A DNA stretch of 14,236 bases from a virus. Of this stretch, positions 2,263-14,236 are shown one piece after another. The stretch lies in the IMG/VR virus record IMGVR_UViG_3300045116_000511. The stretch is one strand, 5' to 3'. Position 1 is the stretch's first letter; each line of letters opens with the position of its first letter. A model generated the notes under the pieces. It had not been told where the DNA came from. It saw only the letters and a program-made list of their open reading frames with translations, and did not search any database. Made by a program: the position numbers and the translations under genes.

Positions 2263-2559
2263 TTACTCGCTCAGATAACCATGTTCTTTGGCCCAAGCAA
2301 GCCATGCGACAGTCATTTTCTCTAAATCACCCCTGTCGTCTGCTGACACTGGGTTCTCACGAGTGATCAAATTCAGCGCCATAAACCAGAGGTCTGGTCC
2401 ATGCTCCTGCAAGTCTGCGAAGATATGCGGCAAAGCGTTCTTGCCGGCTGCGATGATTTGTCGGTAAGCCGGCGAGTTACCTGCAATCACAGGAGAACGG
2501 CCAGCAGAGGTTTCGTCCTTCCACTGCTTCTTCAGTTTGGCAAATTCTTTCGCATCCAT
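2263..2559 (-). CDS. Hypothetical ~98-aa protein (MDAKEFAKLKKQWKDE...); the alternative TTG start at 2637 gives 124 aa.
   Basis: ORF track 2263-2637. The codon at 2637 is TTG and would overlap the upstream gene by 44 nt. The first ATG at 2559 lies 31 nt after the upstream TGA (2591-2593) but lacks a clear SD. Confidence 0.45.
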   Translation of the reverse strand: MDAKEFAKLKKQWKDETSAGRSPVIAGNSPAYRQIIAAGKNALPHIFADLQEHGPDLWFMALNLITRENPVSADDRGDLEKMTVAWLAWAKEHGYLSE

Positions 2560-2593
2560 GTTTGTACTATACAATAATTCGAGAAAAAAATCA

Positions 2594-3067
2594 ATCTTCA
2601 ACCACCGAATAGCCGAAAGGTATTTTGCCGTCCACAATCGATTGCCAATGGTCAGTCACCTCAGTATGAGCATCATTATGTTCGTCCAGAGATTGCTTGG
2701 CCTGCTTTTGTAACCATTCCCAGGTTCCCGACGTGATCGTATTAAATTTACGTCCCATCTGTGGAAACAACATGTCCTCGTAGTCCACCAGCCGCATTGG
2801 TTTGTTCTCTTTTCGCATCCAATGAGAGATAAACTCCCACATGATGCAACCAGCCTGAAAGCCAGTTATCCCACCACTGAGCCCACGGTCAAAGGCTCTG
2901 GCGGCTTGGACTGCCGACGCCGCAATCGCGTGACAAATCGTACCGTAGTCGTGACCATACCCTGCCAGCTCCTGCATAAAAGCGGGCAGTGACTCCATTG
3001 TAACCTCGCGACGATACCATTCGTTGATGATATCCCTGTCTTTCTCTTCCGAAAGCACCTGAGCCAT
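2594..3067 (-). CDS. Hypothetical 157-aa protein (MAQVLSEEKDRDIINEWYRRE...).
   Basis: ATG 3067 with SD GGAGAAtagaaATG. The TAG stop of the upstream gene (3070-3072) sits inside the SD-start spacer. The track's longer form 2591-3184 starts upstream in the overlapping region. Confidence 0.6.
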
Positions 3068-4049: not shown

Positions 4050-5417
4050 CTACTTCACAGCAGAGGCTACTGGAGTCACAGGCGCAACCGGGCCGGCGGC
4101 TGGTACATCTCGGACAATGCCCATACTCCGCATGAGCCACATGCTCACCAGATTGCCCATCCAATCTTGTTGCCCACCGCTGCCGCCACCCAACATGAGG
4201 GTCTGTGGGGCTTGAATGGCAGCCAGTTTGGCGGCGACCTCCACATCGCGCTTTGCGGCGATCTCAGCAAGCGTTCGTTCCTTCTCAGTGATAGCACCAC
4301 CTTTGGCGATTTTCTCTGATTGTGCCTCAGCAAGTACTCGGATGGCCTTTGCCTCAGCTTCGGCCGTTTGGACTTTGACTTCAGCAGCTTTCTTTTCCAA
4401 TTCGGCAACGGATAGCGCCTGCTGGGCTTTGGTCTCAGCCTCTTTCTTCCCCTGATCAGCAACAGCAACTTTCTGCTGGGCTTCGAGCGTTGCCACTTCC
4501 TTCTGCCGCTGAGCGTTGGTCACAGCAGTCACCTTTTCGACATTCGCTGCGGCTTCTGATTCCGCTGCCTGTCGCTTGCCTTTTTCAACCACCATTAAAC
4601 GCTGTTGCACTTCTTGCTCACGATCTGCCTTGGCTTGCTCGGCCTTCTGGAAAGACTCTTTCTTTGTGGCAAATCGTTCTAAAGTCTGTTTGTCGTAGTT
4701 GGTTGAAGTCACGCTGAATTGCAGCACTTCAAAACCGTATTCTTTCAGTGGGCTGATCTGACCGATCTTGGGTTTGCCCTTTTCGTCACGAATGATTTCT
4801 GTAGCAAAAACCGTGATTGGGTTCCCTTTCTCATCAGTCGCATCATGGAAGGTCTTCTCAATATGTCGCATCTCGTAAATGCCGTTACGCAACATGTCTT
4901 CGACAATCTGGGTAAATTCGGCTTTACGAGCGGATTGATGCTCTGATGAGGACATAAGTGGAGCGGCGGCCTTGCAGCAATTAATCATGTGCGCATGGAC
5001 TGCTGCTGCCATGTTATCCACGCTGCCGCTGAATTCGCGGTGAGCTTTTAGCCTCAATTCTTCAGTGCGAGGTGTGGCAAAGCGGATCATCGTTCCGAGG
5101 CCAGCAGTACCACCATCATTGAAGGTCACACGGTTGGTAGGATCACCTTCCTCCGCATGTCCCTTCTCACCCCCAAATTCATGTTGTACCGCACGTGGAT
5201 AAGTCCAGACATGGGCAAACATCTTCATGTACCAGCCTGGCTCATCCCTTACAGAAACGCTACCAGTTACCGACTGAATAATCTGCCAATCTTGGGCGTT
5301 ATTCAGTCCAAACCCACCAGTCACAAGGACTATCAGGACAATCAGCACAAAGATGCCGAGTCCTCCATAGAAAATGTGCCGCTTGCCAAGTCGAAACTCG
5401 CCAGTGTCTCTTGTCAT
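4050..5417 (-). CDS. SPFH/band-7 domain protein, flotillin-like (N-terminal TM, SPFH core, long Ala/Glu/Lys/Gln coiled coil).
   Basis: From ATG 5417 (SD AAGGAActaagATG): MTRDTGEFRLGKRHIFYGGLGIFVLIVLIVLVTGGFG (TM), then an SPFH-like core, then EA-rich heptads (...AEAEAKAIRVLAEAQSEKIAKGG...) as in flotillin/YqiK-type proteins. TAG stop at 4050-4052. The track's longer form from ATG 5474 adds FCMKGT x2 encoded by the tandem repeat. Confidence 0.85.
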   Translation of the reverse strand: MTRDTGEFRLGKRHIFYGGLGIFVLIVLIVLVTGGFGLNNAQDWQIIQSVTGSVSVRDEPGWYMKMFAHVWTYPRAVQHEFGGEKGHAEEGDPTNRVTFNDGGTAGLGTMIRFATPRTEELRLKAHREFSGSVDNMAAAVHAHMINCCKAAAPLMSSSEHQSARKAEFTQIVEDMLRNGIYEMRHIEKTFHDATDEKGNPITVFATEIIRDEKGKPKIGQISPLKEYGFEVLQFSVTSTNYDKQTLERFATKKESFQKAEQAKADREQEVQQRLMVVEKGKRQAAESEAAANVEKVTAVTNAQRQKEVATLEAQQKVAVADQGKKEAETKAQQALSVAELEKKAAEVKVQTAEAEAKAIRVLAEAQSEKIAKGGAITEKERTLAEIAAKRDVEVAAKLAAIQAPQTLMLGGGSGGQQDWMGNLVSMWLMRSMGIVRDVPAAGPVAPVTPVASAVK

Positions 5418-5421
5418 CTTA

Positions 5422-5457
5422 GTTCCTTTCATGCAGAATGTTCCTTTCATGCAGAAT
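5422..5457. repeat. Perfect tandem direct repeat, 2 x 18 bp (gttcctttcatgcagaat), in the SPFH gene leader.
   Basis: Read directly: 5422-5439 is identical to 5440-5457. On the minus strand each unit reads ATTCTGCATGAAAGGAAC, so it carries an in-frame ATG and an AAGGAA SD-like element. Confidence 0.9.
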
Positions 5458-5482
5458 ATCACACCATGTGACATTACTCTAA

Positions 5483-5531: not shown

Positions 5532-6032
5532 CTATTTGTCTTTAACGCAATTGACTAACACGTTGGCAGCCTTCGTTCTCTGATCACTCCACCCACCACT
5601 TGATGGGATTTCTTCCAGGATGGCTTGCAGTTGTTCTCCAGTTAGTTTCGGCCAGTCAGCAAAGTTTTTCGTTGCCTTTGCACGATCAGCGATCAGGTCC
5701 ACTTTGTCTTGATCTCTCACCGCAGCCACGGCGGCGTATAGAGCAGCCCACTCACCGGGCATCGTTTGAGCAATCGCCTGCCGTTTCGCTTTAGCCTCAT
5801 CAGAAGCAGCAAGCACGTTGCTTATGGCCGGAGCAATCACATAGATGGACATCAGAACCAGAAACGCAGCTCCGGTCACAATCCAGATTGCTTCGATGGG
5901 TACATAAAGGGCAAAGGGAAACACGGGCACCAGAATTGTACGATGCCCGCAGGCAGGACAGTAAGTTCCCCCGCTTTTCAGCTTAAGACCATGCTTCTCG
6001 CAAACTGGATTATTACACTTTTTGCTACGCAT
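5532..6032 (-). CDS. Zinc-ribbon (CxxC-x15-CxxC) protein with two TM helices and a cytoplasmic C-terminal domain, 166 aa.
   Basis: MRSKKCNNPVCEKHGLKLKSGGTYCPACGHRT, then TILVPVFPFALYVPIEAIWIVTGAAFLVLMSIYVIAPAI. ATG 6032 overlaps the end of the upstream ORF by 8 nt. Confidence 0.65.
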   Translation of the reverse strand: MRSKKCNNPVCEKHGLKLKSGGTYCPACGHRTILVPVFPFALYVPIEAIWIVTGAAFLVLMSIYVIAPAISNVLAASDEAKAKRQAIAQTMPGEWAALYAAVAAVRDQDKVDLIADRAKATKNFADWPKLTGEQLQAILEEIPSSGGWSDQRTKAANVLVNCVKDK

Positions 6033-6531
6033 GCGAATTCATGATCTCTTCTTCCGTTGTTCGGCGGACGATAAGGCGGAAGCCTTCAATGACAATAGGC
6101 GTCTTTTCCCATTGACAATCCGATTGTGCTCGCAACTCCACAAACTTCCTGGCTCGTTCTTGTAGCGTTTTGATCTCAGCCTCGGTCGGTTTGGCGTCAA
6201 AGAAGATCGCAACGCTATTATAAGCTGGCCACTGATGTTTTACTTTCTTGGCTTTCGGATCGGTTTCTCGGTAATGTTGGCCGTTACCGTCATTGACCCA
6301 ACCCGGAGTGGCCCAAAGACTATACGGCAACGGACCATATTCGCCATACAGCGACACGAGATGTTCGTTGGGTTCGTCGTCCTCCCCAACTTTGTTTTCC
6401 TTGCGATACCGCTTGATCCATTCATCCTCGCCTTCTTCATTGTCGTAACCATTAAAACCGACAACGAAACCGCACATCTCGCGCTCGAAGTTACCGGCAT
6501 AACTGTCGGTATCGATGATAAAGACATACAA
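6025..6531 (-). CDS. Hypothetical acidic protein (C-terminal 168 codons as listed); the true N-terminus is unresolved.
   Basis: The track start at 6531 is TTG. The first ATG is at 6477. The frame stays open upstream to 6762 and encodes a zinc ribbon. Confidence 0.5.
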   Translation of the reverse strand: MYVFIIDTDSYAGNFEREMCGFVVGFNGYDNEEGEDEWIKRYRKENKVGEDDEPNEHLVSLYGEYGPLPYSLWATPGWVNDGNGQHYRETDPKAKKVKHQWPAYNSVAIFFDAKPTEAEIKTLQERARKFVELRAQSDCQWEKTPIVIEGFRLIVRRTTEEEIMNSHA

Positions 6532-6789
6532 TTCATCAGGCGGTAAATCTACTGAGTAAGTCCCTGGATATTTTTGATTGACCGCGGCCGTAATGGCATC
6601 ATCGCTGTCATTACCGAACGAAACCTCGCCACAGTTTCGGCATTTAGAAATCGGAACTTCTGGAACTGTGATGTCAACCAGCTCGCCTTTTACTCGAACT
6701 TTGAGGGCATAGTTTTCCAGCGTAGCCGGATAAACTTCTTGCTTCAGGCAAGTAACACAACGCTAGGGATACGGCTTCGACTTAGGCAT
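6532..6789 (-). other. In-frame upstream extension of the 6025-6531 ORF encoding a CxxC-x28-CxxC zinc ribbon with no canonical start; an upstream in-frame ATG (6789..6787) is separated from it by an amber TAG (6763-6765).
   Basis: Own translation: ATG CCT AAG TCG AAG CCG TAT CCC TAG | CGT TGT GTT ACT TGC ... reads MPKSKPYP*RCVTCLKQEVYPATLENYALKVRVKGELVDITVPEVPISKCRNCGEVSFGNDSDDAITAAVNQKYPGTYSVDLPPDE-LYVFIIDTD. Between the TAG and the TTG at 6531 there are 77 stop-free codons and no ATG/GTG/TTG. Confidence 0.5.
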
Positions 6790-7786
6790 CTTTCTCAAGA
6801 TAAGAGTCAGATACGATCTTGAGCATCACGCGCCCAATCTCCGCATCATTGCGTTCTTTCTCTGGGATGATCACGCAGCCTTCCCGGACATGATCAGCAC
6901 CGGGCCAGGTACTGCGCCCTTCCGAGAGTGAAAGAGCAATCTTGGCGTCAAACGGCCCTTTGTAGAGCAGAGGCACCCATGCCACTTTCGGGGTGACCAT
7001 CGCATAGGCTTCGTCAAAATCCAACCACTGATTCTGTTTCAGAACAGCAAAAGCGGCAAAAAAGACATCGTTCCTTTTTGCCCCGTACTTGAGCTTCTGG
7101 ACCTGCCCAAAAACTTCGCCGTACAGAATCAGAGTCGGGTGTTCCTTGCACCACTCTCCAATAGCTGGATTTCGGTGGAATGCCATCCACCAGTAGTTCT
7201 TGTCATCTTCAGCCAGCCAGTTGGTCCGCGAGCCGCAGAACTGTTTCCATTCCCCATCCTTGTCCTGGGCGTAGGTATATCTGGCGTTAGCTCCATGAAT
7301 CTTCTCGGTGATTACAACGGGCTCGCCAGCCGTAAACATCTGGAAGTAGCGCTGGTAGCATTCGACATCGAACTTAGGACAATACAGACCCGAAGGCCCA
7401 CCAACAAATAGCCCACCCGAAGACATGGGCAGCGGGGGCTCATATCGCTCAATGCCAAGTTCGGCAATGACGTTAGCGCCCACGGATCGATCCAGCAATT
7501 CCGGGGGCACCGGGATTAGCAGTCCCTGACTGAGCGCCCCCTTGAATCGACGGACTCGAATGCGTTCCTGCGGTTTACCATCTTCGCGCTTCAGAAACGC
7601 AAAAGATGGATTAGAAATTGGCACGAGATAATCCGGTGGGATATAGATCGCCAGATCACCCTCTTTGAAGTCGTCTTTGCCGATACAGCACTGCCAACCC
7701 CAGATGCGGGTAATTGCAAGCCGATCAGCGTTGGCGTGAGGCTCAATTTTACCGATTTGGACAATTTCAATTCGATGTTCGCTCAT
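6782..7786 (-). CDS. ATP-dependent RNA ligase, Rnl2-like nucleotidyltransferase with an N-terminal OB-like domain (Rnl5-type domain order), 334 aa.
   Basis: From ATG 7786 (GGAG 9 nt upstream); the codon at the track start 7807 is TTG. Motif I VVITEKIHGANARY (KxHGxN as in T4 Rnl2), motif III-like LILYGEVFGQ, motif IV-like DVFFAAFAV, motif V-like EGCVIIPEKE. N-terminal RIEIVQIGKIEPHANADRLAITRIWGWQCCIGKDDFKEGDLAIYIPPD resembles a tRNA-binding OB fold. Confidence 0.8.
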   Translation of the reverse strand: MSEHRIEIVQIGKIEPHANADRLAITRIWGWQCCIGKDDFKEGDLAIYIPPDYLVPISNPSFAFLKREDGKPQERIRVRRFKGALSQGLLIPVPPELLDRSVGANVIAELGIERYEPPLPMSSGGLFVGGPSGLYCPKFDVECYQRYFQMFTAGEPVVITEKIHGANARYTYAQDKDGEWKQFCGSRTNWLAEDDKNYWWMAFHRNPAIGEWCKEHPTLILYGEVFGQVQKLKYGAKRNDVFFAAFAVLKQNQWLDFDEAYAMVTPKVAWVPLLYKGPFDAKIALSLSEGRSTWPGADHVREGCVIIPEKERNDAEIGRVMLKIVSDSYLEKDA

Positions 7787-8217
7787 GCGGCATTGCTCCG
7801 TTTCCAAACAACAAACTCATAAAACTGCTGTCTGTTATTAAACTTCCAGCCGAACTTTTTATGAAAACTGATATGACATTTTCGGCACAAGCAAACTCCA
7901 TTGTCTAAGTCCACTCTCAAAGAGGGATTGGCGTGGTAGCTTTCAAGGTGGTGACTCGCTAACTCACCGCCGTGTTTGTTGCATACGACACATCTAAAAC
8001 CATCTCTTTCCTTTATCGCGATTCTCCATGCGCGGAACTCTTCTCTAATACGCCGATCCTGTCTCTCTGAATCGGTGAGTCGCGAATTCCAGGCTGGATT
8101 CTTATCTCCCGTCTGAGATTTCAGTCTTTCGTAATTCCAGCAACCACATGACTGAGTCGTTCCGCCTATAAGCGAATTGCGGAAAACAACGCATACGTTA
8201 CCACATTCTCGCCGACG
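7783..8217 (-). CDS. HNH endonuclease (His-Me finger). The open frame runs from the in-frame TAA at 8218-8220 to a TGA overlapping the RNA-ligase ATG, with no ATG/GTG/TTG before the catalytic core. Candidate ATT start at 8049 with an AGGA SD.
   Basis: Own translation: ...FRAWRIAIKERDGFRCVVCNKHGGELASHHLESYHANPSLRVDLDNGVCLCRKCHISFHKKFGW... (CxxC..HH..N..CxC..CH..H). It is not in the ORF track. The first canonical in-frame start, TTG, lies after the HH dyad. ATT (8049..8047) is preceded by AGGA with 7-nt spacing. A frame-1 ATG at 8194 plus a 1-nt change in the T4 run 8183-8186 would also give a full ORF. Confidence 0.55.
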   Translation of the reverse strand, partial: RRRECGNVCVVFRNSLIGGTTQSCGCWNYERLKSQTGDKNPAWNSRLTDSERQDRRIREEFRAWRIAIKERDGFRCVVCNKHGGELASHHLESYHANPSLRVDLDNGVCLCRKCHISFHKKFGWKFNNRQQFYEFVVWKRSNAA

Positions 8218-8230
8218 TTACGCGCTGTCA

Positions 8231-8497
8231 TCATGGCATCTTGCCCTGCTGAAATTCAGCATAGGTTACCGAGCCACCAGTCGGGCCGACCCCAGTAACA
8301 ATGAAGTTACCAGCCGAGCGACGGATGGTATGAACACCACGCTTACCCTTACGTCGCTCAAAGGGTTTGTACCGAATCTCCTGGCAGCCGCTCCCGTTAC
8401 ATTGGAGGCAGACTACACCAACGCCTGGTGGCTCGGCAAAGCCGCGGTAAATGCCACTTCCCTCACAAGCACCACACTCTGCTTTAACCGTTTCCAT
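8231..8497 (-). CDS. DnaJ-type zinc-finger protein (two CxxCxGxG repeats, one predicted Zn centre), 88 aa.
   Basis: METVKAECGACEGSGIYRGFAEPPGVGVVCLQCNGSGCQEIRY. SD GAGGcggaacATG. Ends in a double stop TGATGA. Confidence 0.65.
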   Translation of the reverse strand: METVKAECGACEGSGIYRGFAEPPGVGVVCLQCNGSGCQEIRYKPFERRKGKRGVHTIRRSAGNFIVTGVGPTGGSVTYAEFQQGKMP

Positions 8498-8900
8498 GTT
8501 CCGCCTCGATTAGCATGCGGCGCTTTAATCGACTCGCGGCAATTGCCCGTTCAAATTGCAATTTGGCCATCACGGTCGGCCCATCGTGGCATGCCTTGTT
8601 GTAGGCGGTCCACAGAGCCGTCCGCAGGTCACGACCCTCAACCTTTGCAACCGCCGCTTCAAATGCCCATCGGCGGCCGAAGGCGCGGAAAAAACTGTCA
8701 CCACCGCCACATTGGGCGCGATGCTCGGCAATCACATCGTATTGCCCATTGCCGACTTCATGGAGAATCTTAACCTCGGTAAACGGCTTTTCGTCCTTGA
8801 CGGACAAAACCTGTGCCGAAATTTTCTTCGGCACATGCGCTGGGTTAGAGTGAAAGACCTTGATACAAAACGATTGACCGCCGTGATTCAACCGGATCAT
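8484..8900 (-). CDS. Hypothetical 138-aa protein.
   Basis: ATG 8900 with an excellent SD (AAGGAGcaaccATG). TAA 8484-8486. No motif recognised. Confidence 0.6.
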   Translation of the reverse strand: MIRLNHGGQSFCIKVFHSNPAHVPKKISAQVLSVKDEKPFTEVKILHEVGNGQYDVIAEHRAQCGGGDSFFRAFGRRWAFEAAVAKVEGRDLRTALWTAYNKACHDGPTVMAKLQFERAIAASRLKRRMLIEAEHGNG

Positions 8901-8909
8901 GGTTGCTCC

Positions 8910-9245
8910 TTATTTCTTCAACACAGTATACGCTGCAATAATCCGTTTGGCTCTTTCATTGGACTCTTTGGTATTGCCACATCTATCTGGGTGGAATCGG
9001 AGCATCAGCATGCGATACGCATGCTTGATTTCGTCCTGAGTCGCATTCGGGCTAACACCAAGAATCACCCACGGTGAATCTGGTTGGCCGGAAAGAATCT
9101 CTTCGGCTTCTTCTCGGCCCATCGCCTCAGAGAAAGCTTGACGCCACTGAGCGGCGCTCCCGGCCGGGCCGACGTAAGTACCGTATGGCGACTGGTCAGT
9201 CCAGACGTTACGCTTTGGTTTATTGGGATCGCGCTGTCGAGGCAT
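8910..9245 (-). CDS. J-domain (DnaJ N-terminal domain) protein, 111 aa, with the J-domain at the C-terminus.
   Basis: WVILGVSPNATQDEIKHAYRMLMLRFHPDRCGNTKESNERAKRIIAAYTVLKK carries the HPD tripeptide and flanking helices. SD GGTGG. First gene downstream of a consensus promoter. Confidence 0.85.
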   Translation of the reverse strand: MPRQRDPNKPKRNVWTDQSPYGTYVGPAGSAAQWRQAFSEAMGREEAEEILSGQPDSPWVILGVSPNATQDEIKHAYRMLMLRFHPDRCGNTKESNERAKRIIAAYTVLKK

Positions 9246-9271
9246 CGTACCACCAATTAGCCGTCATGCGT

Positions 9272-9300
9272 ATAATACCGATTACTGGAAGAATTGTCAA
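9272..9300 (-). promoter_or_regulatory. Consensus sigma70-type promoter (TTGACA, 17-bp spacer, TATTAT) driving the minus-strand cluster that begins with the J-domain gene.
   Basis: Plus-strand tgtcaa at 9295-9300 and ataata at 9272-9277 read on the minus strand as TTGACA-17-TATTAT. The predicted TSS is near 9265 and the start codon is at 9245. Confidence 0.5.
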
Positions 9301-9361
9301 CCACGAATGATAGTAGTGCAGCCAAAGAAAAAAATTTCCCTGAATTTTTCAGAGGGCTGAA

Positions 9362-9390
9362 TTGACAGCACGTAGAATATGTCATATTCT
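9362..9390 (+). promoter_or_regulatory. Divergent plus-strand promoter (TTGACA, 17-bp spacer, TATTCT) whose -10 is embedded in a 17-bp perfect palindrome AGAATAT-gtc-ATATTCT (9374-9390). Operator-like.
   Basis: Read directly: TTGACA 9362-9367, a 17-nt spacer, TATTCT 9385-9390. The inverted repeat has 7-bp arms. An A-tract at 9325-9340 lies between the divergent promoters. Confidence 0.45.
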
Positions 9391-9499
9391 TCCATCGGCG
9401 TGGTAGGATCAACTCGTCGTTGATGCTGCCTTTGTCCTGTCACAAGACAGGCCGGGCTAAGCCCGCAGTGAGTGGAATCCCGACTGTAAAAGGAGAACG

Positions 9500-9616
9500 A
9501 TGATGTGGTTTGTTAATTTTTTTAGCTGGTTCAGCACCGCTGGTACGTTTATTGAGGGAGTCCAGAACTTCTTCGCATGGCTCACCTCGATTTTCAACCA
9601 GATCACCACTGCGTAG
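9500..9616 (+). CDS. Small hydrophobic 38-aa peptide (MMWFVNFFSWFSTAGTFIEGVQNFFAWLTSIFNQITTA). Membrane peptide or type I toxin-like.
   Basis: Strong SD AAGGAG 4 nt before ATG 9500. Double stop TAGTAA. A ~100-nt leader with three hairpins (9408-9424, 9436-9451, 9453-9465). Followed by a strong intrinsic terminator. Below the ORF-track size cutoff. Confidence 0.5.
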   Translation: MMWFVNFFSWFSTAGTFIEGVQNFFAWLTSIFNQITTA

Positions 9617-9628
9617 TAACAGCTGAGC

Positions 9629-9661
9629 AAAAAGGAAGGGCTCAATGCCCTTCCTTTTTCG
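9629..9661. terminator. Bidirectional rho-independent terminator (stem aaaggaagggc / gcccttccttt, loop tcaat, A-run before and T-run after).
   Basis: 9631-9657 forms an 11-bp perfect stem, followed by TTTTT on the plus strand and preceded by AAAAA, so it is also a terminator on the minus strand. Confidence 0.7.
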
Positions 9662-9869
9662 TTCCGTCAAACAAATCATCAGGCCATAGTATCTGCTTAT
9701 CACGCAGCGCGACTACGTCTCGGTAGAGAGACTTTAGAATCTTCACTCTTTCAAGGGCAAGGCCGTCGTGGTTCTTTAGAAGATCAGGTCGCAGAATTAG
9801 AAGTGTTTCGACACTCAGCAAAATTTCGACATTATGAATGCAAGTGGCGAATACGTCGAGTTTATTCAT
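9642..9869 (-). CDS. Hypothetical 75-aa protein whose stop lies inside the terminator hairpin.
   Basis: ORF track with ATG at 9869 and a weak SD. Protein-like composition (MNKLDVFATCIHNVEILLSVETLLILRPDLLKNHDG...). Confidence 0.4.
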   Translation of the reverse strand: MNKLDVFATCIHNVEILLSVETLLILRPDLLKNHDGLALERVKILKSLYRDVVALRDKQILWPDDLFDGTKKEGH

Positions 9870-10021
9870 CTTTTTCGAGCGAAAGAAACCTCGAAATCTT
9901 TAGTTTCTGGTAGAAATTCGCTCAACTCCTATTGTATAATAACACTGTTCTTTGACAACTACAAAAGAGAGCTATTGAGGAGCAAGCTCTGAAGTCTTTA
10001 GCTTCGGAGCAGTTGACTGAG

Positions 10022-10819
10022 TTAGTCCCAATCCGATCCTTGCTCAGTGGGCTTCCGGTCACGCAGCCACCGCTCGTAATCCCAAACATAAATCCCAAGC
10101 TCCCCGGATTTATTCACCATGCCAGTTTGACCTTCAAACCATTTCGAGAACCGCTTCACTTCCTCCGCTGAGTGATGCTCATCCAGCATCGCTTTTGTGA
10201 TGAATTTGATACCAGACTCGGTTTTGTAGAGTTTCTGAGGAATCCTACTCCCAGCAACGATGACCGGTTTTGACTTTTCCTCGCCGTATTTGTACTGGAA
10301 ACTGGGAGAACTCAATCGATCCGGGTCTTCCTTAAATCGAAGCGCCTGCTGCTTCAAAGCGTCGAGCAATTCCGTCTGATGCCCCGGATACAAATGAATC
10401 ACTGCCGGATGCCCATTCTGCGGGATGAAGACCATCGAGGTGCCCCAATATTCCCGAGCACTCTCGCAGGGAATCAGGACCAGCCTCGATCCGCACGCGC
10501 AGTCATCATCACAGCGGGTGATTAACACCGTAGGATGCTTCTTCGCCCACTTGGTCACTTCTTGGATAAGTTCGTGACCTTCCCACTTCCACTGACGACC
10601 AGCGGCTCCACAGGGACAAAACTTTTCAAGGAATCCATGCCAAATCTTGAACAGCTTCAGAGAATTGGCATTCATGCGCTTGCCACGCTCTCGAATAATC
10701 TTGCACTCCGACGCCAGACCAGGCCGGGATACTTGCTCCCCACAGTTACAGCGGAAGGCCATTTCCTTCCCATCTCCGCTGTATGAGCAGAGATTAAACT
10801 GATGTACATGCTTTTTCAT
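10022..10819 (-). CDS. Cys-rich hypothetical 265-aa protein with several CxC/CxxC clusters.
   Basis: FRCNCGE, FCPCGAAG, RCDDDCACGSRLVLIPC. ATG 10819 with an AGAGAGAA SD-like element. Followed 15 nt downstream by the hairpin 9985-10010. Confidence 0.65.
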   Translation of the reverse strand: MKKHVHQFNLCSYSGDGKEMAFRCNCGEQVSRPGLASECKIIRERGKRMNANSLKLFKIWHGFLEKFCPCGAAGRQWKWEGHELIQEVTKWAKKHPTVLITRCDDDCACGSRLVLIPCESAREYWGTSMVFIPQNGHPAVIHLYPGHQTELLDALKQQALRFKEDPDRLSSPSFQYKYGEEKSKPVIVAGSRIPQKLYKTESGIKFITKAMLDEHHSAEEVKRFSKWFEGQTGMVNKSGELGIYVWDYERWLRDRKPTEQGSDWD

Positions 10820-11270
10820 CGGTTCTCTCTGGCATCACTCCGCAGGCAATCCATTCCATCGCCGCATGCAAGGCCGCCTCACTGCTGGGCCAACCGCAGC
10901 CAAGAAACAGATCGCCTTGCCACTTGTGCTGGAGCTTCTCCATATCATAATCGTTGATACACAACCCCCAGGACTTTCGATCATGCTGGTTCAGATAAGC
11001 GTGGGCAGTTCGGTGGTTTTGTGGAACAACACTGCCCAAATGGACCGATTCTTTACCGTTGCAGAATTTATTAGCAATCGGCTCACCTTTGTGCCAAGCA
11101 ATGATACTATTCACCGCCAGAAGAAAGTCGCGCATATTGGCAATGTCAATTTGCAACTGATGCATGCGCCGATCAATCTTCTTGCGCTCTGCTTCCATCG
11201 CTGCAAGCTGAGTGCGAAAAGACTTCGGGTCTTTATGACACTTCTTGATCAGACTTTTCGTAACGCGCAT
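10794..11270 (-). CDS. Hypothetical 158-aa protein (MRVTKSLIKKCHKDPKSFRTQLAAMEAERKK...).
   Basis: The track start at 11279 is TTG. The first ATG at 11270 is preceded by AAGGAttGAGGcgtATG. It overlaps the next gene by 26 nt. The antisense ORF 10866-11411 is Leu-rich and judged spurious. Confidence 0.6.
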   Translation of the reverse strand: MRVTKSLIKKCHKDPKSFRTQLAAMEAERKKIDRRMHQLQIDIANMRDFLLAVNSIIAWHKGEPIANKFCNGKESVHLGSVVPQNHRTAHAYLNQHDRKSWGLCINDYDMEKLQHKWQGDLFLGCGWPSSEAALHAAMEWIACGVMPERTDEKACTSV

Positions 11271-11282
11271 ACGCCTCAATCC

Positions 11283-11399
11283 TTACGCTCGCCACTCTCG
11301 CTGGAAAGCCGTCAGTTGCGGGACGTTGCGACCATACTTGCGGCCATGCAGTCCCATGGCGTCCAGATGCTTGCATTGTCCATGCCGGATACAGATCAT
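11283..11399 (-). pseudogene. Remnant or duplicated copy of the SWIM-gene 3' end (38 codons: MICIRHGQCKHLDAMGLHGRKYGRNVPQLTAFQREWRA*).
   Basis: Own translation. It aligns with residues 74-108 of the 12130-12456 protein (NIRHGKCKHLDAMGLKGRAHGRNAEWIKKLGLRGV*). The DNA core 11353-11390 matches 12197-12234 at 34/38 positions. Its TAA (11283-11285) sits 12 nt upstream of ATG 11270, as a native gene junction would. Confidence 0.5.
11353..11390. repeat. Left copy of a 38-bp core direct repeat (34/38 identical to 12197-12234) flanking the plus-strand HNH gene.
   Basis: cccatggcgtccagatgcttgcattgtccatgccggat versus cccatagcgtcgagatgcttgcattttccatgtcggat. Confidence 0.85.
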
Positions 11400-11426
11400 G
11401 CCTGTTTATAGCCGAAGAAAACCAAA

Positions 11427-12158
11427 TTGTCAATGGTTGGGTATGTTCTAACGAAGAGGATTGTGACGAATTTCGCTGCATATATGTTGATGGAAACCAG
11501 AACGTGCAAAACCTGCGGTATTGTCAAGAACATTCGATCATTCCCCGAGAGATACGCAATAAAGGGAGGCAAGAAATACAGGCGTCACCAGTGCAACAGC
11601 TGTCGTTGCCGACGATACAAACCGCGCTATCGAAAAACTTTTAGAGATATCGCGAAACGATGCAGGGCAAAGTACAATGCAAACAAATCTGAGATGAAAA
11701 AGAAACTAATGGCTGCTGTATGGCAAGAAAAGTGCATTATATGTGGGGAGCCAGACCCCGTCATATTGTGCTTCCACCATCGATCAAAGATCGATAAAAA
11801 ATTCTGCGTTTCCTACGGATTCACACACTCTTATGGTTTTGACACTCTACTGGATGAAGCCAAAAAGTGCGATGTAATATGTCATAATTGCCACGCAAAG
11901 AACCACTCAAACCAGTTGCCAAGCCGCCACAAAGATAGGATATTTGAACACATAGGCGACAACAAATGCAAGACATGCGGTGAAAGTGACGCTAGGACAC
12001 TTTGTTTCCATCACCACGACCCGTCAAAAAAAGAGTTCAAACTATCTTGTAGATTTCGGCGCGGCAGATCATGGGAACAGGTATTATCTGAGGCCAGCAA
12101 ATGTATATTGCTATGTGCCAACTGTCATATCAGACTCCACGCAACCCGAGCTTTTTAA
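11427..12158 (+). CDS. Tandem-HNH nuclease (two CxxCG..FHH..KC..C(H/A)NCH modules) with an N-terminal CxxC..CxxC zinc ribbon. Freestanding homing-endonuclease-like, AT-rich, and the only confident plus-strand protein gene.
   Basis: Module 1: CIICGEPDPVILCFHHRSKIDKKF...EAKKCDVICHNCHAKNH. Module 2: CKTCGESDARTLCFHHHDPSKKEF...EASKCILLCANCHIRLH. N-terminus: CKTCG...CNSCRC. The start is ambiguous: the track start 11427 is TTG, and ATGs occur at 11433, 11484 and 11490. The AAGAGGA at 11453-11459 is not well spaced to any of them. TAA 12156-12158 overlaps the convergent SWIM gene by 29 nt. Confidence 0.7.
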   Translation: MSMVGYVLTKRIVTNFAAYMLMETRTCKTCGIVKNIRSFPERYAIKGGKKYRRHQCNSCRCRRYKPRYRKTFRDIAKRCRAKYNANKSEMKKKLMAAVWQEKCIICGEPDPVILCFHHRSKIDKKFCVSYGFTHSYGFDTLLDEAKKCDVICHNCHAKNHSNQLPSRHKDRIFEHIGDNKCKTCGESDARTLCFHHHDPSKKEFKLSCRFRRGRSWEQVLSEASKCILLCANCHIRLHATRAF

Positions 12159-13011: not shown

Positions 13012-14236
13012 TTAGTCTGTGTCGCTCTCAGTGGACTGGATGCCAGCGCCGAGCCGGTTTACAATGTTCGCCAACGGAGTCCCGTTAAAGACCTTCGTCA
13101 GCACCTCAACCACGCTCTCGCCGCCAATCAGTGACTGGATCGAAATCGCCTTTGCCGCCTTGGTCAGCACATCGTCGCGATTCAGAGCCAGCAGAGCCTC
13201 TGCCATCTTGCCATCGGCAGCTTTGAAGCGACTGATGGTTGATTCGCTCTCTGCCACAAGTTGCCTCAAAGTCAGCTCCAGACGTTTCTGCTCAACGTCA
13301 TGGTCATGACCGTCTTTCTCCACCACTCGCTTCATGTTGGCGTTGTGACGGATGTCCTCGACTACCTCATTGGCTTGAGCCTGCTTTTGCTGTCCCTCAA
13401 CCTTCTTCATGATGGCTTCGAGATTCTGCGCCTCGACTTCCATTTCCTTACGCAGAATCTCTTGTTCTGTGGACAGCTGCTGTTTGCGGGTATCCGCAGT
13501 CGCCACATTGACTTGCTGGTTCAGTTTCTCCTGCTCCAGCTTGCCCGACACATTACGCCGAGCATTCTGCAAGTCAATGTTGGCTTTCACCGCCGCAAAC
13601 TGCGCCGACATGAGCAGATTTGCGACGTTCTGGTCAGCAATTGTGAAACCCAGGACTTCGACATCCTGGACGATCATGCCGTTTTCCTTGAAAGGCATGC
13701 CCTTGCGGACGCCCTCGACCGAGTGGCCCAGAATGGCGTCACGAATGATCGGGACGTGATTAGCATAGAACTCTTCGATTGTGTGAGTCTTGACCACACC
13801 TTTGAGGACCGAGCGGACGTGATCGCAAAGCAGCTTGACGTAGTTCTCGACTTCAAACCACTTGTCCGGCTCACCGTCGAAGTTAACGAGCAGCGAAATC
13901 TTCACGGAGACCGAAACGTGATCGCTGGTCTCGACATCGATGATGTCAGAAACTTTGTTGTTGCGCGTCCGCAAGTAAACAGTGCGCTCCAACTTGTCGG
14001 TATTCTTCGGCTTGCCTGTTGACAGTTCCAGCACTTCCAGTGACTCGTCGTAGTCAAGCAGAATCGTAGTCGGACCCTGCTCAACGCGCCGACCACCTTT
14101 CTTGTCTACCACCATGACGGCATACCCTGTCCACACGTTGATGGTGGGGACGCCATCATATTTGGTATCCAAGGTGATCGAGCGGGGCTGCGTATACGAC
14201 GTACCACGCTTGATTGTATCTGCTGCGGATAGTTGG
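13012..14236 (-). CDS. Second SPFH/band-7 domain protein (C-terminal >400 aa); the 5' end lies beyond the window.
   Basis: The track 'start' at 14172 is TTG and the frame stays open to the window edge (..QLSAADTIKRGTSYTQPRSITLDTKYDGVPTINVWTGYAVMVVDKKGG..). SPFH-like core (...VPIIRDAILGHSVEGVRKGMPFKENGMIVQDVEVLGFTIADQNVANLLMSAQFAAVKANIDLQNARR...), then a Gln/Glu/Lys-rich coiled coil. TAA at 13012-13014. Confidence 0.8.
   Translation of the reverse strand, partial: QLSAADTIKRGTSYTQPRSITLDTKYDGVPTINVWTGYAVMVVDKKGGRRVEQGPTTILLDYDESLEVLELSTGKPKNTDKLERTVYLRTRNNKVSDIIDVETSDHVSVSVKISLLVNFDGEPDKWFEVENYVKLLCDHVRSVLKGVVKTHTIEEFYANHVPIIRDAILGHSVEGVRKGMPFKENGMIVQDVEVLGFTIADQNVANLLMSAQFAAVKANIDLQNARRNVSGKLEQEKLNQQVNVATADTRKQQLSTEQEILRKEMEVEAQNLEAIMKKVEGQQKQAQANEVVEDIRHNANMKRVVEKDGHDHDVEQKRLELTLRQLVAESESTISRFKAADGKMAEALLALNRDDVLTKAAKAISIQSLIGGESVVEVLTKVFNGTPLANIVNRLGAGIQSTESDTD

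Follow-up and report, generated by a model that had tools for sequence, protein, structure and literature searches.

A probable amber allele of a phage gene that joins a YgiT/MqsA-type zinc ribbon to a phrog_23621 domain

The virus record IMGVR_UViG_3300045116_000511 (14,236 nt, hereafter the window) is an entire Joint Genome Institute (JGI) contig and is probably part of a much larger phage genome. On its minus strand, at 6025-6789, lies a reading frame in which an ATG is followed, at codon 9, by an in-frame TAG, and then by a long open stretch encoding a zinc ribbon and a C-terminal domain. Why does a stop codon stand between the start of this gene and its zinc ribbon? An earlier note, made from the letters alone, had described the ribbon N-terminus of an acidic protein as severed from its true ATG by an amber codon. 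The analysis presented here leads us to conclude that a real phage accessory gene with two domains is present here, probably as a nonsense allele (W9→amber) of recent origin.

The minus strand reads ATG CCT AAG TCG AAG CCG TAT CCC TAG CGT TGT GTT ACT TGC…. The ATG (6789-6787) begins 2 nt ahead of the stop codon of the upstream RNA-ligase gene (TAA, 6784-6782), and from the resulting 8-nt overlap the interrupted gene is predicted to be translationally coupled to the ligase gene. The next gene junction (6032-6025, ATGCGTAG) again has an ‘ATGnnTAx’ overlap of 8 nt, in which the terminal TAG of the interrupted gene (6027-6025) is overlapped by the ATG (6032) of its neighbor. The leader codons PKSKPYP (6766-6786) run directly into the amber codon (6765-6763), which stands two residues ahead of the first Cys. 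After the amber codon, 231 nt (77 codons, 6762-6532) remain open, with no in-frame ATG, GTG, or TTG; the zinc ribbon takes up 6559-6762 of this stretch and the junction peptide YSVDLPPDE takes up 6532-6558. The TTG at 6531-6529 is the start of the 168-residue protein in the JGI gene call and a possible internal start or restart, and a further in-frame ATG follows at 6477-6475. The C-terminal domain (6028-6528), whose function is unassigned, carries the motif FIIDTDSYAGNFERE and matches the phrog_23621 profile. Another in-frame TTG (6796-6798) lies three codons 5′ of the ATG (…TTG AGA AAG ATG…); as an alternative start, it would add MRK to the leader, and the conclusion would be unaffected.

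These observations on the sequence confirm the coordinates, the 77 open codons, the missing ATG, GTG, and TTG codons, and the overlap with the ligase stop as first described. The conceptual product is also acidic, as had been claimed, with an isoelectric point of about 4.95. The spacing of the Cys pairs, previously given as CVTC-x28-CRNC, had to be corrected to CVTC-x35-CRNC. The four Cys residues are Cys11, Cys14, Cys50, and Cys53, and the span from first to last is 43 residues, compared with 42-43 in nearly all homologues.

Is the stretch downstream of the TAG a real coding sequence? A codon-usage log-odds model was built from 13 of the window's other genes. By this measure, the ribbon segment reaches 0.20 bits per codon when read in its own frame, and all five alternative frames give negative values. 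For comparison, 77-codon stretches taken in frame from the training genes have a mean score of 0.29 ± 0.13, and the off-frame maximum is 0.005. The ribbon clears the NCBIfam model TIGR03831 by a narrow margin (20.6 bits, where the cutoff is 20.2; E = 4.1e-4; aligned to model positions 1-41 of 46). Its match to TIGR03830 (MqsA family) has E = 9.5e-5 but covers only model positions 1-57 of 127, and its 22.2 bits fall far short of the cutoff, 61.8. When the ribbon was compared exhaustively by phmmer with 1.84 billion representative proteins, 93 matches were obtained at E <= 1e-3, the best with E = 2.4e-9 and 45% identity. Every one of the 34 aligned ribbon members matches TIGR03830, and 23 of the 34 match TIGR03831; the four Cys columns are invariant across the ribbon alignment (A3). 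Since the coding score is confined to the segment's own frame and 93 homologues exist, the stretch after the TAG is genuine coding sequence for a YgiT/MqsA-type finger.

The ribbon homologues are of two classes. One class consists of stand-alone zinc-ribbon proteins of 70-100 residues, one of which was named ‘YgiT-type zinc finger domain-containing protein’ by JGI. The other consists of proteins of 200-300 residues, with the ribbon followed by an XRE-type helix-turn-helix (HTH) domain (Pfam MqsA_antitoxin, HTH_3); in one homologue, P0130, an HD domain is found in place of the HTH. Single-sequence and profile searches of the PDB with the ribbon gave only generic zinc-ribbon matches with E >= 0.007 and no MqsA entry, and we found nothing in the literature joining YgiT, zinc ribbon, and phage.

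The ribbon homologues share an N-terminal leader ending in (K/R)-P-(F/Y)-P-x-R-C-x-x-C, for example, MKSKPFPWRC (P0149), MPRTKPFPWRC (P0138), MTTKPKPYPRHC (P0152), and MGDKPYPWRC (P0195). The window sequence, M-P-K-S-K-P-Y-P-TAG-R-C-V-T-C, fits this leader on both sides of the stop. The phmmer query began after the TAG, with the leader outside it, so the match of the leader is independent of the query. Counted from the ATG at 6789, the leader is 10 residues long, a length that falls inside the family range (as in P0149), and the family has a median of 13 residues before the first Cys. The homology of the leader codons with the ribbon family ties the stretch ahead of the TAG to the same gene, and the ATG at 6789 would be its ancestral, native start. 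Thus, the conserved family motif ahead of the TAG bears out the claim that the ribbon has been cut off from its true ATG.

What did the TAG replace? The residue at this position in 85 homologues is W in 41, R in 14, I in 9, S in 6, and L in 3, with others found once or twice. Trp is the commonest residue, and its codon TGG becomes TAG by one transition, G→A at 6764 (C→T in plus-strand terms). This is the simplest origin of the stop, and Trp would most simply be the ancestral residue, judging from relatives of 30-48% identity. A relative of the whole fusion was not among the sequences found.

The 168 C-terminal residues match phrog_23621 with E = 5.2e-24 (residues 2-162 against profile positions 7-166 of 177), and 141 homologues of this domain were found in a protein database of 5.8 billion clusters. 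In the phrog_23621 alignment, T85, G90, F92, and R94 are invariant in 77 sequences. Among the 120 homologues listed, the proteins either start 2-15 residues before an (F/V)IDTDSYAGNFERE motif or have a non-ribbon extension, and the zinc ribbon is absent from all of them. It is also absent from 13 GenBank phage records and 54 IMG/VR loci of phrog_23621, the latter mostly from 100-500-kb phages. In the other direction, the phrog_23621 motif is absent from all 93 ribbon homologues. Thus, among the proteins and loci retrieved, the fusion of the ribbon with phrog_23621 is seen only in this window.

The closest stand-alone relative, P0002 (52% identity), starts with MSVRLPPDKLY, where the window has YSVDLPPDELY. 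The homology therefore reaches 10 residues upstream of the TTG at 6531, covering the junction peptide, and the Met of P0002 corresponds to a Tyr codon (TAC) in the window. Furthermore, there is no Shine-Dalgarno (SD)-like sequence upstream of the TTG, while many genes of the window have GGAG or AAGGAG. With Tyr at the position of the P0002 Met and a TTG without an SD sequence, the gene looks built for reading from the ATG at 6789. The stand-alone members P0034 and P0045 begin with MYIFVIDTD, near the position of the TTG, and the TTG-started product (M-YVFIIDTD…; N-terminal peptide (M)YVFIIDTDSYAGNFER) is a complete domain by the standards of the family. Ribbon-less C-terminal homologues that start near the TTG, which the earlier note had named as evidence that would count against it, do exist. 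However, the lack of a coding signal in the ribbon stretch, which it had named likewise, was not found; since this stretch has both a coding signal and homologues of its own, the finding stands despite the ribbon-less relatives of the C-terminal domain.

One IMG/VR phage locus, L014, shows a related arrangement. At 2540-2773 (+), a 77-residue YgiT-like zinc-ribbon open reading frame (MAEKKSNDFKCPTCGG…) shares the overlap ATGA with the stop of a phrog_23621 gene. Relative to the window fusion, the gene order is reversed, and the ribbon profile match is weak (E = 8.6e-4). No such neighbor was seen in the other 53 phrog_23621 viral loci scanned. The fusion and this case together give a weak hint that the ribbon and phrog_23621 modules work together.

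Could the TAG at codon 9 be read as a sense codon? The stop codons of the 17 likely genes of the window are TAA in 9, TGA in 5, and TAG in 3. The three TAG terminators end consecutive genes, at 6025, 5532, and 4050, the first being the interrupted gene itself and the last the gene at 4050-5474. The terminal TAG at 6027-6025 is genuine, since P0002, the nearest homologue, terminates no more than two residues away. The stop census and this end point thus agree with the statement of the earlier note that TAG is a genuine stop in the 4050 gene and in this same reading frame. No other gene among the 17 has an in-frame TAG. Global recoding of TAG (genetic code 15), which had already been judged unlikely, was therefore rejected, since TAG ends three of the 17 genes and a single gene is interrupted. 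No tRNA was found by ARAGORN in the 14,236-bp contig, the window has no Rfam match at the gathering thresholds, and the RNA around and downstream of the TAG (6800-6650) has no stimulatory fold (z = -0.14 relative to shuffled sequences). Within the 14 kb visible, one in-frame TAG, three TAG terminators, and the lack of a tRNA, Rfam element, or fold point to a point mutation rather than code 15 or programmed readthrough. Most likely, then, the TAG is not a new reading of the genetic code but an ordinary one-base nonsense mutation.

Two further candidates were dismissed along the way. A second pair of reading frames joined by TAG, on the plus strand (10866-11411 and 11427-12158), was rejected since its first part overlaps a better minus-strand gene and only its second part, an HNH endonuclease, has homologues. 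The first part, which is in frame upstream of the HNH gene and ends in TAG, looks spurious. An impression that genes ending in TAG are followed by unusually close back-up stops vanished once all 17 genes were tabulated.

Has the same TAG been seen elsewhere? Three other sightings of this phage (L001, L004, L005/L006) came from exact-protein look-ups, and only L006 covers the TAG. This Logan contig, from SRR35384393 (4318 bp), is 100% identical to positions 5724-10041 of the window, TAG included. A second Logan contig, from SRR35384741, matches the window with 100% identity along 942 bp, and a JGI contig of 3300045117 has 1 mismatch in 1477 bp; both end short of the TAG site. Since two assemblies agree at the TAG, an assembly artefact is unlikely. 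The protein database holds no full-length sense allele (about 254 residues), and the full-length query returned only the 150/168-residue cluster, with 99% identity. A megablast search of GenBank phages gave no match, and a word-indexed search for proteins resembling the ribbon also came up empty. A search of metagenome_contigs, genome_contigs, and viral_contigs with the 245-residue product gave no relative; L003, the sole match of the contig scan, was rejected as a chance CVTCLKQE in unrelated DNA.

We propose that the native form of 6025-6789 would be one gene, encoding an N-terminal YgiT/MqsA-type ribbon fused directly to a phrog_23621 domain and translated from the ATG at 6789 by coupling to the RNA-ligase gene. 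A change of TGG to TAG at codon 9, inside the KP(F/Y)P-W-RC leader, would have created the amber allele, probably recently; apart from the TAG, the ribbon has kept its 77 open codons and all four Cys, which fits a young mutation. In a non-suppressing host, ribosomes starting at the ATG at 6789 would release an 8-residue peptide. The zinc ribbon would not be made in such a host, because there is no canonical in-frame start within it. At best, the C-terminal domain alone would be produced, from the weak TTG at 6531, which lacks an SD sequence.

What else could account for the TAG? It might be decoded, either by a suppressor tRNA, supplied by the host or by the phage from outside the window, or by efficient near-cognate readthrough at CCC-UAG-C, giving the full-length fusion, possibly at a low or conditional level. 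The ribbon frame past the TAG is intact and coding-like, the Tyr codon at the stand-alone start and the TTG without an SD sequence suggest a gene built for the ATG at 6789, and the visible part of the genome is only 14 kb. TAG-decoding phages have been documented (bioRxiv 10.1101/2021.08.26.457843; PMC9523058). However, TAG ends three of the 17 genes here and the other genes have no in-frame TAG, no tRNA or Rfam element was found in the window and no stimulatory RNA fold around the TAG, and the interruption of one gene alone looks like a mutation and not like a genetic code, so we consider decoding a minor possibility. It is improbable that the amber codon, with TAG otherwise a terminator, is read through by a suppressor tRNA or because CCC-UAG-C is leaky and serves as a stop that gates a low or conditional level of the fusion. 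A different reading is that only the C-terminal domain is functional, starting at the TTG at 6531 as in the JGI gene call, and that the ribbon is the decaying remnant of a once-separate upstream gene. The 120 homologues listed, the 13 cultured-phage records, and the 54 viral loci, all ribbon-less and starting within a few residues of the TTG, agree with this reading. Yet a long-dead stretch should not retain 77 open codons, four Cys, a best match with E = 2.4e-9, and native codon usage; furthermore, there is no stop between the ribbon and the domain, P0002 is still homologous for 10 residues ahead of the TTG, and an SD sequence is missing in front of that codon. We regard a remnant as quite improbable, and it is in any case the same event at a greater age, which reduces to a recent nonsense allele if the mutation is recent.

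An error of sequencing, assembly, or consensus, with the population truly TGG at 6765-6763, would need to affect a single base, and the two assemblies possibly come from one library. However, the JGI and Logan contigs agree at all 4318 bases, and substitution errors in short-read consensus sequences are rare at normal coverage, which makes this explanation very unlikely. Finally, translation might begin at a non-canonical codon downstream of the TAG (CTG at 6748-6746, or AUU/AUC), so that the TAG closes a short upstream reading frame. No canonical start exists in 6762-6532, and non-AUG initiation does occur in bacteria. Such a start would lie past the first Cys pair, though, and would destroy the invariant four-Cys site; in addition, no SD-like element precedes the candidate codons, and since the family N-terminus has its counterpart in the leader ahead of the TAG, the native start is upstream. 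We consider this explanation extremely unlikely. Thus, among the options offered in the earlier note, a nonsense allele is favored, while a sequencing error is less likely, initiation at a downstream non-canonical codon is unlikely as the native state, and suppression or readthrough is a minor possibility.

Several points weigh against a recent nonsense allele. The 14 kb examined is probably a fraction of a larger genome, and a suppressor tRNA could lie elsewhere in it. In E. coli, the context CCC-UAG-C, with a Pro codon before the stop and C after it, terminates translation weakly. The intactness of the ribbon is explained equally well by suppression that keeps it translated. Two assemblies (JGI and Logan), possibly made from the same reads, are the only ones that span the site. 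The ancestral codon is deduced from distant family members (30-48% identity), none of them close, and none of the collections searched yielded a close relative of the fusion gene.

How does this gene compare with known systems? Like the YgiT/MqsA ribbons (TIGR03831, TIGR03830, PF15731), it has two CxxC pairs about 35 residues apart, with ‘CGE’ after the third Cys, and only a short basic leader, (K/R)P(F/Y)PxRC, precedes the N-terminal ribbon. The modular design is also shared, with an N-terminal ribbon and varied C-terminal partners, mostly HTH domains and in P0130 an HD domain. Unlike the MqsA antitoxins, the window protein has phrog_23621 as its partner and no HTH family match in Pfam or NCBIfam, and it has no adjacent MqsR-type toxin, as its neighbors match no Pfam toxin family at E <= 1. 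The gene also differs from the YgiT/MqsA family in being interrupted by TAG at codon 9. With the phrog_23621 family, of which Escherichia phage 4MG gp257 (YP_008857308.1) is an example, it shares a near end-to-end profile match, the (F/V)IDTDSYAGNFERE motif, and its occurrence in phage genomes or phage-like contigs, many of them large. However, all other phrog_23621 members retrieved either stand alone or have a non-ribbon extension, and only the window protein has an N-terminal ribbon.

The allele itself resembles the classical amber (am) alleles of phages, such as lambda Sam7, whose expression depends on a suppressor host. In both, a single early TAG lies in frame, the gene is otherwise intact, and TAG is an ordinary terminator. 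The window allele, though, is from an environmental metagenome and was not selected in the laboratory. Recoded phages, in turn, tend not to end their genes in TAG, and a suppressor tRNA gene is usually present in their genomes. What the window shares with such phages (code 15, TAG→Gln) is an in-frame TAG where homologues have a sense codon. Recoded phages have many in-frame TAGs, which are reported to be enriched in late genes (bioRxiv 10.1101/2021.08.26.457843). By contrast, the window has one interrupted gene in 17, three TAG terminators, and no tRNA in its 14,236 bp.

The interrupted gene belongs to a minus-strand block with the order DnaJ-domain protein, two unknown proteins, RNA ligase, the interrupted gene, a 166-residue zinc-ribbon/membrane protein, and a Band-7-like protein. 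The RNA-ligase gene directly upstream (6782-7786, minus strand) matches Pfam RNA_ligase (2e-23), the PHA02142 OB domain (1.7e-17), and phrog_968 (1.5e-45). In two phages with a 66%-identical ligase (L064 and L065), the genes downstream of the ligase are unrelated, which indicates that the interrupted gene belongs to the variable accessory genes, where null alleles are able to persist. A DnaJ-domain gene is found upstream of the ligase in L064 and is absent in L065.

What does this locus mean for the annotation of such phages? The automatic gene call, 168 residues from the TTG at 6531, hides a two-domain gene, and the value of the finding is mainly in annotation. The architecture of a YgiT ribbon with phrog_23621 is newly seen and could help to assign a function to a widespread phage family. 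An amber codon early in an accessory gene is an event already known from phages; the fusion is new but incidental. If the TAG were decoded, the locus would be a case of gene-specific amber gating in an otherwise standard-code phage, and nothing that we found points there.

A few features of the window and its relatives were noted in passing. The RNA ligase has many relatives with 55-67% identity, on phage-like contigs that reach hundreds of kb in length. One of these relatives, P0272, is labelled by NCBI as a Planctomycetota metagenome-assembled genome, which is a hint at the host range of the phage group only. The gene that follows the interrupted one (5532-6032, minus strand) encodes a protein that opens with a small zinc ribbon (CNNPVC…CPAC) and continues into a hydrophobic stretch that probably spans the membrane; it has no family match. 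At 11427-12158 (+) is the Cys-rich HNH endonuclease, with two HNH-like modules (phrog_2255, 9.8e-38). It is the only clear plus-strand gene in the minus-strand block, an arrangement typical of the insertion of a free-standing homing endonuclease. At the end of the contig, a reading frame that runs off the edge (13012-14235, minus strand) is major-vault-protein-like (Pfam MVP_shoulder, 5.1e-25; Vault_3, 2.7e-8), a family that is unexpected on a phage-like contig.

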